Of a DNA stretch of 64,000 bases, positions 33,284-56,534 are shown in pieces. The stretch spans positions 1,079,620 through 1,143,619 of the forward strand of contig BDGG01000004.1 in NCBI GenBank assembly GCA_001949185.1, read 5' to 3'. The notes beneath the pieces were generated by a model. The model was not told the origin of the DNA. It did no database searches and was given only the letters and a program-made list of their open reading frames with translations. This DNA comes from Ramazzottius varieornatus. Lineage: Eukaryota; Animalia; Tardigrada. The first letter of the stretch is position 1. Each line of letters begins with the position of its first letter. The translations under genes were made by a program, and so were the position numbers.

Positions 33284-35085
33284 TCAGTAAAAATATTCCT
33301 CCAAGGTTGGGGCACTTAGACCAAAGTACTGGCCAGTCTGGCTTTCGTACAGCCAAGTATGGGCATTTGTAAGCAGAACGGCGACTCTAAAGTACAGTCC
33401 AACGGGTTGCAGAAGCACTTTCTGGTTCTTAGGGAAATCAAGAAAGGCCCATAGTACACAACATTTTCCAAACATCCATTCAACAGACACGCGCAGCTTA
33501 CTCATTACGTAGTTTAAGTCAGCCTCGGCCTGGTTGGTAACAGAACGAAAAGGTGCTATGAGCTGAGGAGTGGAGGTATATCCTTGATCGCCATAGATGT
33601 AGAATTTCCAGTCTGCATCCTCTCGTTTCCGTTTCAGCTGGTCGATCAGGTTACTTTCTTGGTACATCCTCCAGTCGTGCCTCTTTCCGACGATAGGACC
33701 CGCAAGATGGACAAACAGACCGTTTGGCAAACCCACAGCTTGATACTTTAAACTAGTGATGTTCTAATATGGGTTAATGAGATCTAACATAATAAAAACA
33801 AATATCCGCCGTCCATCAAAGTTCTAATAAGTGACCACTACTATAGTAAAACGTCTACCTGATTTAATAAAATATTACTATAGTAGAACTTTCGGGGGTT
33901 TGTTATTAAAATATATTTTAATATCGGAGAGCTCGACGGAAGATCTAAAGATTCAGAATCACAACCATCAGATCAGCAAAAATACTGTAGTACAACCTGT
34001 AACCTGCACCTGCACAGTGTAACATGGCCGGTTGAAGTGTTAGCCTGTATACAGGTGCACGATGTTCAAGGGTATTTATTCTGCAGTAGCCCTACTGTAC
34101 TGCTTTAGAGGCATCATCATGGTGTGGCGCACTTTATAAGGCGTGGTCGCACATCGAGAAGCCAACGCACGCGCATCAGAACTCAGCAAATCAACCAGTT
34201 CTTCGAATCAGCGGTAGCGTTAACCCGTATTAAAATTTATTTTACTGTGGAAGATGGACAACTTGATAATAATAAAATATGGCACTTCCGGTTTCAAGCT
34301 ACTAAAATATAAATATTGGAATGCGGTGCCCAATTATGTTTACTAAATATTACTAAATATAGCAGATGCTCAAAACATCTACTATCATCTATTTTAATAT
34401 AATATTACTATATTAGAACATCACTACTTTAAACCATCCTTTCGCTTATGGCCATTGTAGAGGTCTCGCTGGAGCCGTGAAGGTCTACCAGAATACAAAA
34501 ACAGAAAAGTAAAAATTAGGTTAACATAAACAGTATCGACTGAAATTTTGGTTGGGCCGTACCTTGCAACAGCACACACTGTCCCGTCAATAAACCCAAT
34601 ACATTTGTCGTATGGAGCTCCCTTTTCCTGTACGACTTGCACACATTCACGTATCTTGTTGTTGTCCAGCCAGGGATGGTCTAGAGTGTCCAGGAGATGG
34701 CCGAATCGATCATGGACGTACTGGATACGGTAGTCAAACATGCGAAAAAGCGCCGTTTCTTCCTTCCCATGTAATTCTTCTATGTCACACAGTCGGGACG
34801 GTAGGCAAGTCACCTTAGCACCACACACAAGATTTCCATACCACTGCACTTTATTCCATTGCCCAGCGTAACCGTGTCAGGAATGCGAAGAACAGTACAC
34901 AAGCGCTCCAGATCATCCATCTCAAACCGGAAATTCTCCCTGCACTGCTTCAGCGTCATGTTGTCCAAGTCGACCGTTGTTCGCGGAAGGTTCCGCTCTT
35001 CAGCACTAGATGCCGTGCAGATGATCAACTCTTCTTCATCGATGATACCCAGACCATAAGCAGTCAATAACATCTCATGGTCCAT
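33284..35085 (-). pseudogene. Harbinger DDE transposase (DDE_Tnp_4 type), inactivated
   Basis: CRENFRF, GFIDGT (D), YNGHKRKDGLK|YQAVGLPNG, YGDQGY (D), RVSVEW (E). In-frame TGA at 34810-34812, a 1-bp frameshift near 34800, an intron at about 34489-34562, and a MITE insertion. Confidence 0.92.
33754..34426. mobile_element. Non-autonomous hAT-type MITE (673 bp) nested in the Harbinger transposase
   Basis: Perfect 17-bp TIRs tagtgatgttctaatat (33754-33770 and 34410-34426) and a perfect 8-bp TSD ctttaaac (33746-33753 and 34427-34434). AT-rich interior with no credible ORF. Confidence 0.93.
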
Positions 35086-36028
35086 GATGGAGATGGGAAT
35101 TAAAAAAAGCAATGGCTGTAGGAGCGGATTACTCGTTTGAAATTCGAACTAGAAAATAAATTCCATCCAGCTACTTCTGGGAACAAAAGTAGTCAAATCA
35201 ACCGGCAGCGTTCGGCGGACACGGAGCGTGCCGCTGGTTGATGTCCACCGTTCGTAAAGTTTTTCTCGCAAGAGCCAAAATCAAATTTTACGTCGACGAG
35301 GAACGTGAAGTTCTTCGTCGTGAAATTTCACCGTTCGTAGTAAAATTCTGGCTGGCACGCAAGGTGCCGAATGTCGAAAAGCTTGCAGTGGTTTTTCAAC
35401 TGGACCGTCAGATCAGCGACCGATACGACACAGTCTCTCAGCTCTACTCGCAAGTTCTCCCAAATATTGATACATGGGCAGAAACGGGATATGATTTCTC
35501 CACTCGAAGATCCTCCCGAATGGCCGGTAGGAAAGATGTTCAACTGCTCGAAAACCAAGTCGCAGTAATCAGCAGCCTTATACCCGACATGGCTTTCCAT
35601 TTCTCGCGATCGCACACCGTGCAAATCATGATACGGCTAATTCCACCTATACTGCTGAAACAGAACGGTACATTGCAGACTGTACTTACCGTCCCGTACA
35701 AAGTGCTCATGAGCGTCGAGATACCCAAAATTTCCAGACCATCTGGAATGCTGTCGAATGTTGTCAGGGCACACGCTTCCGCCAGCTGTCGAGTGTCGCT
35801 TTTTTCCTCTGCCAGTCTATGGCCAACCTTTGTCCAGCGCTCGAGATACCGGTACTTCTGGTTTCCGACGCTGGCTGAAGGTAGACAAAGCAATCTCGAC
35901 CTGCAAGGAAACTTTGGTATGCAGAACCTGGCTATCAGGATCGACATCAAAAGTCGAGAGAATTCTCGGAATATGATTCAGGGCTGCGAGTGGACAATGG
36001 CCACTGCTGCCAACGGAGATCGATAATT

Positions 36029-42320: not shown

Positions 42321-45300
42321 AAACACACAACTCAAGACTGCTCCGGCACATGAAACAACCCTCCGGAATTTCACGTTTCCCATGCCCAAAAGTTGTCTGT
42401 CATGTCATCTTTGCCATCAACGTAATAGCTTGATCGCTAAATATTCCCATAAAATGGTCCTACATCTCTTCCCTTTCTCTCCGGGTACAAATTGTCCCGA
42501 GTTCCGCCTCAAGATCGATAGCTGAACAGAAACGCGCGCGGGTAAGCTTTGTAAGGTAAGCAAGCTATCATGGCATGTTACTATGTATGTGCTGTAAGGT
42601 TACTGCTGAGTGCTGACTCACAGCCAACCGATCGCGATGCTCGAATAGTTAGATTTTAATCTCCTCAGTCACTTTTATCGATTTTCTTCTCATTCTCGTC
42701 AGCCATCGAAATGGAACATCCGAACAAGTGAAGTGGCGTGGCGCACCTTTTCCTTCCCTTTTGGAATCCAGAGAGGACTGTCCTGTTGGGGTTGACCGCA
42801 AGCATCCTGTCGGATCTGTCCAAGAGCGGCGGAGAGATACAGTAGCAGTGCATGACCAGCGCAGGCACGTCCAGTAATAAGAATGCTGAAGCCTGATCCA
42901 TATAGCCAAGGCGTTCGACCTTCGAAGAGTTGCTTTGAGATCCTAATGCTAAACCTGGTTCTTATGGTTGTATTGCACGTTCTCTATAGTGAAAGGACCG
43001 GAGTGAGCGAAGAATGATTTCGGCGGCCAGCGCTGCTGGGCATGGAGTAGCATTGGCGCGCTTGGCTACTGCCGGTGGGTATACTTCTCTCGAAAATATA
43101 AATCACCATATCGTGACTATCTTTGTGCCTTGTGGCAGAATCTACGTTGGAGCTGGACACGATACACCGTCACCACGGGCATAATGGGGATGCGGCAGTG
43201 GCAGCAGGGGTTGCTTCTCAACCAGGGACTTCCGGTCCAGCGCGGGTTGCGTGGTTTCGCACCATCTCCCCGGAACTCAAGAAAAGGCTGGGCGATACCA
43301 CCAGCGTCTCGCTTAGGTAAGTTCCGCAGCACAACATTGAGAACTTCTGCTGCATAAGGGATAGGAGGAGCAATGTTAAATTTATTTTTGTTTCTCCAGC
43401 TGGAAGGATTTAGTGGTTCGAGTGGTTCCTGAGAAGAAACGGCTGGCGGCGATTCTGCAGCCCTCCAGGCGAGAGTCGAATGCAACTGCAGCGTCGCTGG
43501 TGGCCGAGCCGCGCAAGATCCTAAATGGTGTTAGTGGCGTTGTCCAGTCGGGTGAATGCATGGCTCTGATGGGAGCTTCCGGGGCGGGGAAGACCACCCT
43601 AATTAACATGCTGACTGGGTAAGCACCGTCTGGTATGTTTTGCTTATGATTTCGAGCCATCTGTAGATTGGTGAATAGACCTTTCGTGATTGATCTCAAC
43701 AGGCGTAAACGGGAGATGAAGCTGCAGATGGAAGGGACCATCTGTGTGAATGGACATCAGATTGGTTCGGCCGTCACAATACTTCTGGCTACGTACAGCA
43801 GGTACAGTGACACAATGTGACGTACACTGGTCTCACCTTACTCCTTGTCATGGATTCGACGTAGATCATATAAGTGTAGCCGATACTTGACATTCTGTGG
43901 AATTCTCATGGCTTTTCGTTGTTGGGTACAGATGGATCTGGCTCTCCCCGCACTGACAGTACGCGAGCATCTCAACTTCCACGCGAACCGTCGAATGCAT
44001 CGAGGCATCTCGCCAAAGGAGCGGAAAGAACGAGTGGAGGAGGTCATTCTAGACTTGGGTCTGACCAAATGCACTGATACTCTCATAGGTGGAAGACATA
44101 TCAAGGTAAGTTTCATGTATCACGTTGTCGTGACTGTTTTGTACGACGATCATGATTGTAAGGCATAATATTATACTGTAGCATAAACTGATTAGAGAAT
44201 TCAAGACTGCATTCCCAACTTTAACCTTTGGTTTTGCAGGGCATCTCTGGAGGGGAAATGAAGAGACTGCAGTTTGGATGTGAGGTGTTGACCGACCCTC
44301 CTCTGTTGTTCTGCGATGAGGTAAGGGTTCTTCTTGATCGAAGCCATTATTTGTATTCTTCGTGAACTTATCTGTATTTTCGCGTATATGCAGCCAACTA
44401 GCGGTCTTGACTCGTTCATGGCAGAAGCAGTAGTGTCCATCGTGAAGAACCTAGCTGCTCGCGGCAAGACAGTGGTCTGCACGATTCATCAGCCTTCCTC
44501 TTCCGTGTTCGCCGTGTTCGATAAATTCATGCTCTTGGCCGAAGGTCGCGTGGCTTTCCTGGGTCCACGAGTAGATGACATCCCCTTCTTCAACAGTATC
44601 GGTATCCATGTTCCCGAAGATTACAATCCCGCTGATTTCTTCGTTCACCAGTTAGCCATCATACCTGGCCACGAAGACGAGTGCAGAGCCAAGGTGCTAT
44701 AGAATGAGCAGAAAGATAATAATTTTCGTTCTTGTTCGTTCTAAGGACAATTTAACCCACTGTTTTGTTCTTCAGGCCAAAGAGATTTGTGACAAGTTTG
44801 CCGTCTCCGATCTGGGTATCAGTATGAAGAACCGAGTGGACGAATTGATGCCGGATTCCACAGCGAACAATAATCGAGATGCAGGAAGTGCTCGATACAT
44901 GAAGCACATGGGCCATGTTACTTATAAGGCTTCTTACTGGGAGCAAATGCAAGCGGTGCTGTGGCGAAGTGTTCTTACCATGCGCCGCGAACCCATGTTA
45001 CTCCGCGTTCGCTTAATACAAGTCGTGATCATCAGTCTGATTTTCGGCTTGATTTTCTTACAACAAACGAAGAACATGGCCAGTATGTTTGATCCTTACT
45101 CGGTTTGCTCCATTTGGCGAAGAACTTGATGGATTATACATACGTTTTTTTCAGGCGTTCAGAATATCAACGGCTTAATGTAGATGTTTCTTATGCAAAT
45201 GGCGAGTACTATACAAATTCTTCTTCCAAATAACGGAGGAAGCTCGACGAACTAACTCGACAACTTGGTTTTTCCAGGTGGCGCACGCTCGTAGCCAGTA

Positions 45301-45652
45301 ACACTGGAAATGTGCACCATTTGCGGGAAACGATCTTGTTGATTTTGCTTGCTGAGCTTCCGCATTCTTTGGGCTTCTCATGCTGGAGTTTTTCTTGTAG
45401 ACAATGGGTAACATATTCGCGGTGGTGACGACGTTTACAAACGAGCTGCCGGTATTCTTGAAGGAACACGACTCCGCAATGTATCGGACGGACGTGTACT
45501 ACCTAGCCAAGACCCTTGTAGATATTCCGGTTTTCGTCGTCCTGCCCTTCATCATGGCATGGACGTATGTACACGCTAGCACACTGACCTAGTTTCATTG
45601 AAGCTTGAAAGACTGAGCAGAGAGCGAGTGACCGATGTCCTGTTGCACACGG

Positions 45653-45673
45653 CGTGACGTCACGGCATATAAG
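45653..45673 (+). promoter_or_regulatory. CRE-like palindrome (cgTGACGTCAcg) immediately followed by a TATA-like box (tataag)
   Basis: Motifs at 45653-45664 and 45668-45673, near the left edge of the insert. Confidence 0.4.
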
Positions 45674-46212
45674 TCGTAGCCGATGGCGCGATACCGTTGT
45701 TTCCATTCTGCAGCATTCTCTTCTACGGATTTCTCCTGCTTTTTCCATCCGCCTTCAGATCGCTGCTTCATCTGCTCTTGTGGCCTTTGTGCCTACCCGT
45801 GGATATCTGGACGGTGATACGGCGGACTAGCGGCGTATTTGTCGGAGGGGAGAGGTCGAGCGCCTGAGCGGACCGCGCTTTGATGGTGGCCATTCCTGTA
45901 TCTCTTTTTGCTCTTATTATCCGATTTCTGGAGCCAGATTGATCGTTAGCTGTATCCTGTTCCACTGCAAGTATCCTGCGCCATCATATTCCAGCATCTA
46001 CTGTTCAAGGTAAGATCAAACAACGGCTAAAACTTATAAAATGTCGCTAGGAATGCTGGAGGAGGTTCCAATGAATGACTTGACGCCTGACGTCACGGTT
46101 TATGTCGCGGCCCTTGAGGGTAATCGGCCTGGAAAGTGGCTGCCCCTGGGGGCAAATCGCGGGGGCACTGAAGTCATGCGCAAACGAAACGGGGCAGTGG
46201 AGACCCATCATG

Positions 46213-49200
46213 CTAAAAGTGGACGGTGGGCAGAGACCATCCATTTTTAGTGGCCGACCAGTGGTACTCGACCTAGTGACTCGGGTCTGCTGGGTGGGTG
46301 GCAGTTGTAGTGCGTAAATGGCTTCATCGTTCGAATGTGGCGTTCACACCCGGTACAGAAAGCAAGGTCGATAGTGTAGCCGGGCTAAAATTGGATGGTT
46401 GTCGACGACCACCAGCCCAAGCAGTACTTTGATTCGGTAGACTCAAATGGATGGCTTTCGGCGAGCCCATCATGAATGGAGACGCTTCCCCACCACCATG
46501 GTCACTCGCTACGAGCCCGGCAAGAAGAAGATGGCCGTCTCTCTGGTGATTGCGGATCACATTGATGGGCCGGAGCAAAAATCTGCAGGGGAATGGGCGA
46601 AACTCTTGCTGCGTTGGGCGATCACAGTCGAGGTATGAACAACCCCGATGCCAATGGTCTACCCATTCGACGGTCGTGGATCCGAACGACCTTGCTGGAC
46701 GCCAGGACTGGCCGATTCGTTCGTCAGTGATAGATTGTGGCTGGGTTTTCCCCTGGTCCCTCTTTTTCCAATTTGATTTTGCTATCCGAGACTGCGGCGG
46801 GGTGAGGGCGCACACCAACCGCGGTTGGTAATTTCTGTTTTTTCAATTTGAGTAATTCCCTTTGATGTTTCATTTCTCTATAAAGGGATGGTCGGCGACG
46901 ACCATCCATTCTTAGTATGACATTTTGGTCATCAGCTACAATTTGGTTTAATGGTAAAGTAAAACTTCCGATTGCACAGCTATCACTCCTGATAACTTTC
47001 CTACAGTAGTTTTGGTATTAAACAAAGATCCTGGACGGGACAGGGAAACGTCTCGAAACGTAAAGAAAATCTAGGGAAAAGACTAACGGTAACGACGCCG
47101 GCACATGAAAACGGAAAACCAAAAGACACGCGGCCGTATTGTAACAAGAAAAATCTAGTCTACTCTTCATCTCCATCTTCACTTTCAGTGTCGTCGCTCT
47201 CACCGCTCTCGCCGCTGGCCTTGTAGTCTTCATCGGCATCCTTATCATCATGGGCCGCCTGCTCATCCTCGTCGTCATCCTCTTCGGCGACCGTCGCTTT
47301 AGCCTTCAACGCGGCGACCTTCTTCCCCGCGGCGCGCTGACGAGGCCCGGGGGCGTCATCCTCCGACGCTTCTTCCTGAGACGCTTTCTGAGCGGGTTTC
47401 TTGGCTGGCGACTTGGCCTTGGTCAGGGATGCTTGGCGTCAGCCGGCAAAGCCGCCCACGCCGCCAGTGCTTCCGTCTTCAATTCGGCCGTCTTGAGCGT
47501 GGAATGTTCCTGTTGGTAGTGGTTCTTGAAGTGCGTATACGCCGCCAAGGGTCGACGGGGAGCCTATGAAGAATGAACACTATAAATGGATGCTCACGGG
47601 AGACAATCCATTTTTAGGATGAACAGTCCGACTTACATTGCCCGTGTTGGCCGGTCGTCCAATTTGCCCCTTGTGCTTCCGGTTGCGCTTGGCGCGAACC
47701 TTGAGGTTGGCCAACGAGGCCTGTTGCTCAGCGGTCAGCGGCGTATAATACCCCAAGGGCTGAATGGGCAGCAGCATACGGGCACGATTCCAAATCTCCT
47801 GGCGCACGTAGGATGACATGCTCTTGACTCCTGGCCATGACTGTGTGTGATTGGTACTACCCGCTACAAACGGCAACATACTACCAGGTCAAAGGGTACT
47901 ACCAGCGTCCAACTTACCGTTGCCCACACTTTGCTTGTTACGATCCTGACCTTTGGCTCGCTTCTTCAGTGCTTCCAGTCCGTCCACGCGCACGGGAATG
48001 GACGTCTGCGCGACGAAGCGCTGGTACTGCGCACCGGCTGGTTAGACGGTCCAGCCTTTGCTGTTTCGGACTGCTTGCCTTTATCCGCTCGCCAAGCCTG
48101 TAAATCATAAAAATCATACGACGAAAACCAGCTAGGCACAATGGCAATGACACCGGCTTACCGCCACAACCTTTCGCAGCTCGTCCGCCTCGGGTATCGG
48201 CACAAACTGGGCCATTTCAATCTACCACATAGATATATACACACTCGCTAAATATGGATGGATGTCGGTGACCATCCCTTTTTAGCAACGCCTACCGTCT
48301 GATTCTTTTTTCGCTCCAGCTCCGCGGCAATGTCGTGTGGCAGTAGGACCTCGTCTGTTTTCGCCAGTGCATTAACTTCCGCTCGTGCCTGTAACCGTAA
48401 ACTGCATTGCGCTGTCACATAGACGCTTAATAGTGCACCGGTTTGAACATACCTGCTCAAAGCGCCACCAGTCGGTCAAGAAGTGCAGCTGGACAATGGC
48501 CTGTTTGTTCTTTGACAAGTTCTGGTAGGTGCGACTCTTGCTGGACCGTTTCGCCAGATAGGAGGAGAATGGGGCATCATCGCGGCGTGACGCGAAATAA
48601 CTGGCCACATTGGGTGCGGGAGCCAGTTCATAATGACTGTCGAGAATCAGGGCTCGTTCGACCTTGCCTGACTTCGATTGGCCAAATCAACACTTGTATT
48701 TGACCTAAGAAGAGACCGAAGTCAATAAAGGGTCTCCGGTGCCATACCGAGAACCATATACTTGTCCTTACCTACTGATTGGGTGGAGTGGTATTCAGGG
48801 CAGCGCTGAACGGCCACGAGTTCACGGAACAGTCGGTCAAGTCGCAAAAATCTGTAAGGCCACTGACTGGCACGGCCGTCCCAGCCTCCACATTGTCCAA
48901 AACGTTGCCCTGTTCCTACCAACAAGTCCATCATATTAGCGTATTAGGGAACATAACTCGCTGAATACCGCCGTCACTGACCTGAAACACGGCCAAGTAA
49001 CGGTCCAGCGTCTTCAACAGAGAGGCAGCTGTTGCAGGATTATCCTTCAACGCCTTCAGGATCCAGGACCAGTTGTCGGCAAACGACTCCACTTCCGGCT
49101 CGAACCGCAAATGAAGAAGCGCCGTAGTACTGACGTCCGGACACATCATCCCGTGCAGGATACGCCGCTCGGATATGCCCGCCAACGAGTCTTTTGGTCG

Positions 49201-50328
49201 GACCAACTTGACCAAGTCATTCTGCATCAATACAATGTACGTCAGCCTTACATTGTCCGCTGCTGTTGGGTCGAAGGTCATCGTGACGTCCTCAGTCGCG
49301 TCGTCGTCCTTGTCCGTTGAGGCGGACACAGCACCAACACGCTTGCCGCGGGATTTTCGCGAGGACTTCGCACGGCGAACCCTCTTTGGCGTTGGGTCTG
49401 TCTTGTCCGCTGGTCGCGTCTGTTGATGTTGCTGGGCTGCCGGGACGGCGTGGGACGAAGACGGAACCGTCATCATCTGGACTTGTTCCTGGACACCGGC
49501 CAGTGCGGGGTTTCTAGCCGTGGTGTTGGCCGTAGCATTCTCGTCTGCAAATAAACATGTACTTTAGCATCCACAACAGACTATCAAGGGATGGTCATCA
49601 TCAACCTTCCATTATTCGGCATACCTTGAGAATATCCAATTCAATGTCGGCCTTGGCCAGGTTGTGTTCGGCCACTACCTTAATCATCTTGGCCTCGAGC
49701 CGATCCCACGGTTCTTGGGCCTTGTGCAACTTGTGAAAGTACAGCGCGAGACTGCCACCTTTCAAGAGCATCGGCCCCATCTTAACCTCGTCGTCTTTCA
49801 GGCCCACGATGGTCCCTTGTTCCAGTTCTTTCAACAACAAACGGAGGTGGGGATAGACGTTGTTGGGCGCGGTGGCCAGCCAGCGGAGGGCCGCCATCAT
49901 GTCGCTGTCCCACACCTTCTTCACCTACAACGAGCGCCAGCGCAAAATGTTAATCGCCTGCGACGGACAAGGTACCATACATGATATCGCACAAACGATC
50001 CGACATAGTCAGACGGGCATATTCCGCTACTTACGTTCGGTTCAAAAGCAGACAGATAACGCTTTGTGCGGGTAAACAAATCAGCTGGCACATCCCAGGG
50101 CTCGTAATCCACATTGGCCATCTGCTGCGACGGTCGCCACTCCACCAAACGAGATCGGAAGATCTTGACCCATTGGTACACGGTGGCAGCCGTGGCACGC
50201 GTATGGTCAAAGTTGACAACGTTGGCGTAGATGTCGCGTTCTGTGGCCGGAAAGTCATAGACGATAAAGACCTGCAAATACAAATAGACGCTATTAATGG
50301 ATGGAATCCAGTGACCATCCAATTTTAG
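46213..50328. repeat. Dispersed 38-bp palindrome family CTAWAAWKGGATGGTC-N6-GACCATCCMWTTTTAG
   Basis: Copies at 46213-46250, 46878-46915, 47580-47617, 48248-48285, 49581-49618 and 50291-50328, plus a partial copy at 46385-46422. Confidence 0.9.
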
Positions 50329-50410
50329 CGAACCAGGCTTGAGTTACATACCGGTACTCGTGTTCTCACGGTCCAGTACCGATCAGGCAGCTCACGGCAT
50401 CGCGGGTCCT
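47160..50410 (-). pseudogene. Multi-exon gene of the insert encoding an unknown protein with a C-terminal HMG-box-like domain and basic/acidic tail
   Basis: About 10 exons with canonical GT-AG introns. The last exon reads APRRPLAAYTHFKNHYQQEHSTLKTAELKTEALAAWAALPADAKHP*(in-frame TGA 47423-47425)...EEDDDEDE...ESEDGDEE. Further stops and frameshifts lie upstream, and no start exon was seen. Confidence 0.7.
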
Positions 50411-51235
50411 ATTATCCATCGGAACTAACAGTACCAATTTTTACCGATTATATGTTTGCAGTATGTGAGTTGGTTCAAGTACGCTAACGAAGGTAATAAT
50501 TATAGACATTTCTGAACAGCTTTCGTCATTCTCCTCTTTCCTGATTCTTATACTGTATGTCTGTATCTTCCTGCTTTGCGCTGCAGCTTTGCTGATTAAT
50601 CAGTGGGAGTCTGTGGACAACATAACGTGCACCAATGCGGTAGAGACTATCAATGGAACTTGCGCTGGACTTCTGCCTAATGGGCAAGCGGTAACCCCGA
50701 AGTAGAACCATGTTTCTTCGAAGCTCAGGGTTCAGGAAAACTGTCAGGGGAAAGCTAATTAGCGTTTGCATTATAGGTTCTGGACAGACTGAACTTCAAG
50801 CACTCGAACTACAGCTTCGATATCGGTATTCTGTTCCTTATGATTCTGGTCTTTCGAGTCATCGCCTATCTGGCTCTGTGGAACCGTACCCGGAAGTGAA
50901 GCACTGGTGCATGTTTTGTCCCTCTCTTGCCAACCATTCCTGCTGTTTTTGTTGATACCTTTGACAAACCGTCTCTCGAAGCAATCCCCCTCTGTCTCTC
51001 TTAGAAATCTCTCGATTTGATAATACTCGCTGTGAAACTCTAAGATTGAGATTAATTAGGATCACTCGTTTATTCGTTCGTTTACAGTCTTCTTTCACTG
51101 TTTTGGTAAGCTCTGCTCTGGTCTTGAAGTTTACGATCAAATTTCATCACAAAAATTTTAACAAAGTCTTGTCTGGTCACAGTAATAAATAAAACAACAA
51201 AACACAGTGGAGAATCTTTTGACTGAAAATTTGTA

Positions 51236-53027: not shown

Positions 53028-56534
<3,507 letters not shown>

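Follow-up and report, generated by a model that had tools for sequence, protein, structure and literature searches.

Regularly spaced palindromes in a tardigrade element fragment are candidate operators for a dimeric protein of the element itself

A 64-kb stretch of compact animal DNA, gene-dense and rich in introns, from Ramazzottius varieornatus (Tardigrada; BDGG01000004.1, positions 1,079,620 to 1,143,619; hereafter the window) contains an insert in which long palindromes recur at regular distances through the introns of a decayed gene and the DNA downstream of it. The sites themselves, their placement and spacing, the gene that surrounds them and an HMG-box match in its product suggest that these palindromes are operator-type sites, recognised as duplex DNA by a dimeric protein of the element's own, a reading to which we assign a probability of about 0.55. 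That the palindromes are protein-binding sites is quite probable; that an element-encoded protein reads them is somewhat favored, and an anti-silencing or chromatin role for the sites is put forward tentatively. The whole of the evidence comes from one locus.

The insert, ~4.8 kb in length (45555..50398, both ends being approximate and possibly truncation points), replaces part of a white-like ABCG gene on the plus strand (43800-50900, with an in-frame stop at 45181-45183). The ABC2_membrane match of this gene reaches only position 116 of 211 in the model and ends near 45562, the ABCG reading resumes beyond the insert at 50462, and comparison with the family suggests that ~70 codons have gone. 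DNA contigs of the unique flanks stop at 45668, begin at 50369 and branch at 50398, spliced contigs cover the ABCG gene and continue into the insert, and the GC content of the insert is 0.530 against a comparison value of 0.480. The contigs of DNA run X1 exist in two versions at 46411, 47022, 47081, 47361, 47598 and 49543, and RvY_00831 differs from the window; at least two versions of the element must therefore exist, most likely as copies at different places and less likely as alleles. Between the ends of the insert no inverted match reaches 8 bp and there is no terminal inverted repeat, no target duplication was found flanking it, and Pfam searches of the exons present in the window found no catalytic domain. 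We infer that the insert is a low-copy transposon of which the window carries a fragment only; set against the marks of a cut-and-paste transposon (interspersed copies, a transposase and termini), there are at least two differing versions, and neither a catalytic domain nor termini are seen in this fragment.

A first-pass annotation of this DNA had listed six 38-bp palindromes with inverted 16-bp arms around a 6-bp spacer, and their coordinates and letters all proved correct, the arms being self-complementary at 10-13 of 16 positions. Palindromes 1 (46213..46250) and 2 (46878..46915) lie downstream of the element gene. The other four lie within its introns: palindrome 3 at 47580..47617 (intron 47564-47636, 73 nt), palindrome 4 at 48248..48285 (intron 48222-48295, 74 nt), palindrome 5, the most diverged, at 49581..49618 (intron 49545-49624, 80 nt) and palindrome 6 at 50291..50328 (intron 50272-50351, 80 nt). 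The partial copy reported at 46385 is present as described (palindrome 1b, 46385..46420); its right arm is 7 nt short, but the inner part of that arm, the spacer and the left arm are preserved. It can now be amended to a full site, since another DNA version has it whole; it lies off the 678-bp lattice described below, at a distance of 172 bp from site 1. The sites are decaying, since in addition to the 7 nt missing from site 1b in the window, 7 nt are deleted at the spacer of palindrome 3 in another DNA version. When a scoring matrix was built from the 12 arms of the six sites (consensus CTAAAAATGGATGGTC), as had been proposed, and run within the 64-kb window, the six sites stood clear of all other places, with 38.0-47.3 bits at a spacer of 6, compared with 13.6 bits for the next best place (29090) and 15.5 for the best of 200 shuffled windows. 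In a leave-one-out analysis each of the six still scored 31.9-44.1 bits, and no place beyond the insert exceeded 14.8. The remaining 59 kb of the window contains no full site, in agreement with the earlier claim that no copy lies beyond the insert, and with spacers of 0 to 14 tried, full sites were found at 6 alone. Comparison of the six sites' surroundings bore out that their flanks are unrelated and that they are not tandem-duplication remnants. The supposed 'array' is no cluster; the sites are spread as a lattice through the gene's introns. A worn half-site candidate at 48926..48939, in intron 48916-48981, scores 3.8 bits and is suggestive at most. The exact site pattern, which fits three of the six sites, returned nothing from viral, metagenome and prokaryote collections, in which animals are few, and no 16-6-16 site is present in the first 400 letters of each consensus of a published tardigrade repeat library.

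Each arm follows one consensus. Among the 96 arm-to-arm pairs, 72 are consensus pairs, 18 are mismatches, 6 are wobble pairs on one strand or the other, and none is compensated; the two arms of a site are as alike as arms of different sites (12.0 versus 12.3 of 16, permutation p 0.89). Departures from the consensus cluster by position, at the A-run and the innermost base (p 0.022), as in the pattern of a binding matrix, and right arms are kept somewhat better than left (88 versus 79 of 96, p 0.085). The spacers do differ in every copy, as had been noted, but they are not random: C occupies position 3 in six of seven and a purine position 4 in all seven, with symmetrised p values of 0.0017 for this centre and 0.0025 overall. 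Because there are no compensated pairs and the arms each follow one consensus, the palindromes are best regarded as duplex DNA read arm by arm rather than as hairpins kept for pairing.

The four sites that fall within the gene are all wholly intronic, a placement that chance would give to 363 of 3202 possible positions (11.3%; p 1.7e-4 for four of four). The site floats within its intron, 6-23 nt from the splice donor, and the intron sequence beyond it is unrelated between introns (z -0.31 to 1.56, all six pairs). Outside the site, these introns measure 35-42 nt, compared with 54-110 nt for the six introns that have none. Three sites are downstream of the gene, and two of these (1 and 1b) fall within 46007-46439, a plus-strand GT..AG joint skipped by RNA-type contigs of X5 and X7 that may represent read-through from the broken ABCG gene. 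The splice acceptor of this joint is followed by an open 64-codon stretch (46441..46632, plus strand), which has no Pfam match and is possibly a remnant of a second, convergent gene or, again, read-through of the broken host gene.

Successive gaps between the six sites are 665, 702, 668, 1333 and 710 bp, which fit a 678-bp period with R 0.994, a single empty node and residuals between -20 and +13 bp. This fit was matched by 1 of 3000 uniform simulations and by 2 of 20000 in which four sites were confined to randomly chosen introns (p ~1e-4); the six sites tested were the earlier reader's set, fixed before the spacing was looked at. That reader had noted neither this regularity nor the position of sites within introns. 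The empty node, 48942, falls in the intron with the possible 3.8-bit half-site. Inclusion of the seventh site, 1b, weakens the lattice (p 0.042 for periods of 400-1000 bp), and a seven-site period of 169.5 bp (p 0.021-0.056) was found post hoc. A value of ~170 bp is typical of the nucleosome repeat, and our reading of the spacing as such a repeat is likewise post hoc. The gaps show no helical phasing. The left junction of the insert (~45552) lies about one lattice period from palindrome 1, and no recognisable site is found there. As the regular spacing is kept through a coding gene, we take selection to act on the distance itself, a form of selection relevant to the influence of mobile DNA on chromatin and to the positions that introns occupy.

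The gene that surrounds the sites is a decayed multi-exon gene on the minus strand (47160..50399) with splice joints in run X7, ~834 residues present and its 5' part missing. It is interrupted by in-frame stops at 48772-48774, 48687-48689 and 47423-47425 and by frame breaks near 49543, 48003-48038 and 47423. Splicing was judged from contigs that skip GT-AG introns, none of the runs listed being recorded as RNA: in those of X7, a run taken as RNA by guess and for which 15 of 17 joints were listed, ten stretches between 47562 and 50350 are missing, of which seven have clean minus-strand GT-AG ends and three less clean ones. The exon at 49625-49924 agrees at all of 92 residues with RvY_00831 of R. 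varieornatus, a differing version of the element gene that forms a one-member cluster; since the spliced version has the differences of RvY_00831, it is not the window copy. The last exon encodes an HMG box (47426..47563, minus strand; Pfam PF00505, E 1.7e-4, 22.4 bits, under the 25.4 cut-off), followed in the next frame by a Lys/Ala-rich and acidic tail (47163-47423, minus strand). A further exon (50035..50271, minus strand) may encode a mariner/Tc1-type helix-turn-helix: its ESM Atlas features score 0.88-0.90 to HTH_48/DUF4817 clusters with 138-158 shared features, a weak match (score 0.90, fewer than 170 shared features) that we treat as a lead only, and the exon has no Pfam, PHROGs or PDB sequence match.

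No relative of this protein was detected. Homologue searches restricted to longer proteins confirmed none of 270 candidates for exon 48934-49563 (region 100-210), none of 30 for exon 50035-50271, and one of 396 for exon 49625-49924, which was the RvY_00831 version itself. HMMER with RvY_00831 over 1.84 billion proteins found no homologue, returning only the query and one immunoglobulin-domain protein (E 7e-4) whose match is to a low-complexity stretch and was taken as chance. Protein patterns of the element gave 0 of 122 and 0 of 9 confirmed hits in collections with few animals, PDB sequence searches with pieces of the protein gave none, nine pieces searched against PHROGs gave one family of unknown function at E 0.017, and ESM Atlas held no usable match for 48453-48686. 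Single-sequence folds were poor (pLDDT 59.6 and 39.9), and Foldseek found nothing for them at E 0.001. Since the protein has no detected relative, the element may belong to an unclassified superfamily. Set against the features of KDZ/Zisupton elements, namely KDZ and CxC domains and an 8-bp duplication, the part present, which lacks the ends and the 5' part, has no Pfam match and one C-x-x-C, and no link between HMG boxes and KDZ elements appears in the portions of PMC12730594 and PMC12477816 available to us. The exons present, which exclude the 5' part, likewise have no Pfam match to a Mutator-type transposase or a VANC homologue.

Several other explanations for the palindromes were weighed. 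They might be hairpins that act in pre-mRNA or single-stranded DNA, as splicing aids, small-RNA precursors or nicking sites; every palindrome is foldable (as RNA, -6.5 to -18.0 kcal/mol), and four lie in introns and two more in the plus-strand skip. The lack of compensation in all 96 pairs and the absence of any extra likeness between partner arms make this very improbable, as do the lack of an Rfam match for any palindrome, hairpins that fall short of the splice sites, the absence of an H-hydrophobic-H motif from the residues present, and a DNA spacing that is regular though exon content varies. Common descent by itself would likewise leave no compensation, and the sites could then be neutral relics left by repeated insertion of a tiny mobile palindrome, whether an introner, a micro-MITE or Zator ends joined head to head. 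In favor of such an origin, the arm shares 12 letters with the 5' start of one Hypsibius consensus (hypDuj3-1381) of the tardigrade Zator elements (TP36; PMC11071193, consulted in part). A Tc1/mariner-type helix-turn-helix would also be suited to reading such a sequence. The palindromes differ from Zator ends, however, in being internal and head to head, without a GG terminus and without the 3-bp TWA duplication; the CC..GG of joined Zator ends occurs in none of seven spacers, and the ACGT core kept by the other Zator ends listed (22 rows of 102 mentions in the PMC11071193 supplement) is absent. Introners, as described in the accessible part of PMC12130899, also place a repeated sequence in several introns of one gene, but here only the intron middle is common, the splice sites do not derive from the repeat and three sites are outside the gene; with no whole-intron similarity (z at most 1.56 in six pairs), introners were rejected. 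Target duplications at the sites never exceed 2 bp, and reach that in two of the six, the 35-42 nt of intron remainder are unrelated around a site whose position floats, and random insertion would yield no lattice, all of which leaves a relic origin with a small probability.

The recombinase reading in the headline of the first-pass annotation, taken here as tyrosine-recombinase target sites for inversion, excision or resolution, appears equally unlikely. Tyrosine recombinases need matching spacers between partner sites, and none of the 21 spacer pairs is identical in either orientation, the best agreeing at 5 of 6 letters; the annotation's own caution that differing spacers disfavor recombination between copies stands. 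Inverted arms around a fixed 6-bp spacer do fit the general layout of such sites, for which the available text of PMC3212892 gives spacers of 6-8 bp, but the arms there are 11-13 bp and not 16 bp. A recombinase had been sought in the element; the 834 residues present contain no H-x-x-R motif, and the exons present have no recombinase match in Pfam or PHROGs, while the missing 5' part of the gene could hold one. The exons flanking four of the sites are spliced together in order, and the units are therefore not independent cassettes. Against the marks of Cryptons (an R-H-R-Y recombinase, terminal direct repeats of 4-6 bp and a circular intermediate), the insert resembles the elements covered in that part of PMC3212892 in having introns and no obvious terminal inverted repeats, and is unlike them and unlike tyrosine-recombinase sites in that its palindromes are internal rather than terminal and its seven spacers unmatched. 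Rearrangement breakpoints in the spacers, which the annotation had proposed to look for, amount to one DNA version with the 7-nt loss centred on the spacer of site 3, a point in favor of recombination; no joint runs from spacer to spacer among the 15 of 17 joints listed for one DNA run, whose contigs drop rare forms. A host DNA-binding protein borrowed by the element is improbable, though less so. Consensus-driven arms, a fixed spacer and intron placement would suit any dimeric reader, and two lone half-site-like matches, without a partner arm, occur beyond the insert (5484 and 29112; 16.8 and 19.2 bits). Yet no full site occurs in 59 kb of gene-dense host DNA, the element has candidate DNA-binding domains of its own in the HMG box and the helix-turn-helix lead, and 32 bp of recognised sequence is unusually long for a host factor.

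The reading we favor, operator-type sites for the element's own protein, retains the part of the annotation that saw cis sites of an inserted element and discards the recombinase; its fallback, in which a dimeric protein would use the sites for binding or as a scaffold, is the best fit. On this model a two-fold symmetric protein, probably element-encoded, would dock on each palindrome, with each subunit reading one arm: a helix-turn-helix would contact the inner GGATGGTC, an HMG box or basic tail would contact the outer A/T run, and the weakly kept central C-purine step would serve as the bending point. With sites every ~680 bp, in introns and in downstream DNA, bound dimers would stand roughly every four nucleosomes, and the protein would thereby recognise and mark its own element over its full length. 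The purpose would most likely be to protect the element's activity from silencing by the host, in the way that VANC acts for VANDAL. More speculatively, and with considerable doubt, the insert may come from an unclassified mobile element of animals; its HTH-HMG protein would occupy a lattice of long palindromes placed in the element's introns at multiples of ~170 bp, corresponding to one, three and four nucleosome lengths, and would thereby determine the chromatin of the element as a whole. If true, this would be a transposon-encoded, spacing-dependent self-marking of a kind not described in animals.

The sites of En/Spm TnpA, of Harbinger Myb-proteins and in baculovirus hr palindromes are also repeated, partly palindromic and bound by a protein of the element or virus; these are subterminal or clustered tandem arrays, whereas the tardigrade sites stand singly and are spaced through introns. 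The closest likeness is to the VANDAL transposons of Arabidopsis: in the portions of PMC5735166 available, VANC21 binds motifs that lie in the introns and remaining non-coding DNA of the transposon encoding it, these motifs being 8-9 nt, non-palindromic, in one orientation and multiplied by tandem repeats. In both cases the motif is confined to the element (here, within the 64-kb window) and concentrated in introns and non-coding parts, and the reader is element-encoded, as demonstrated for VANC and proposed here for the tardigrade element. Unlike the motifs of PMC5735166, the tardigrade sites are 38-bp palindromes that stand singly, have unrelated flanks and follow a 678-bp lattice, and the element that bears them is an animal one with a candidate HTH/HMG protein. 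Sequence-specific self-recognition along the transposon body is known for this plant family, and an animal case would combine long palindromes and a fixed period with a candidate reader encoded in the same element. We found neither this element nor a lattice of this kind described in the literature covered, outside which lay Repbase and most subscription papers, and a literature search on tardigrade silencing gave nothing usable.

The insert and its surroundings contain several other features. A 9-bp direct repeat occurs at 45660 and 50392; its second copy coincides with the insert's right-hand junction, and the repeat may mark the point of a deletion. The stretches 45704-46214 and 47082-47279 are absent from other versions, which have short filler instead, and the break of the former falls 2 nt within the outer edge of palindrome 1. 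Two CRE-like TGACGTCA palindromes occur in the insert (45653-45664 and 46088-46095), compared with one in the remaining 59 kb, and the TGACGTCA core is also kept in tardigrade Zator ends among the entries listed. A broken Harbinger transposase at 33284-35148 (minus strand; DDE_Tnp_4, E 1.5e-13) agrees by eye at its start with the consensus RV-B-R228#DNA/Harbinger. An intron of the ABCG gene carries a high-copy short repeat at 45254-45330, with many loose contig ends; a hairpin with 50-nt arms at 55542-55652 is related to it, and this repeat resembles by eye the end of ramVar1-801.raw#Unknown. Finally, an inverted repeat at 53405-53643, with 42-nt arms that are 88% complementary and 155 nt apart, is MITE-like.
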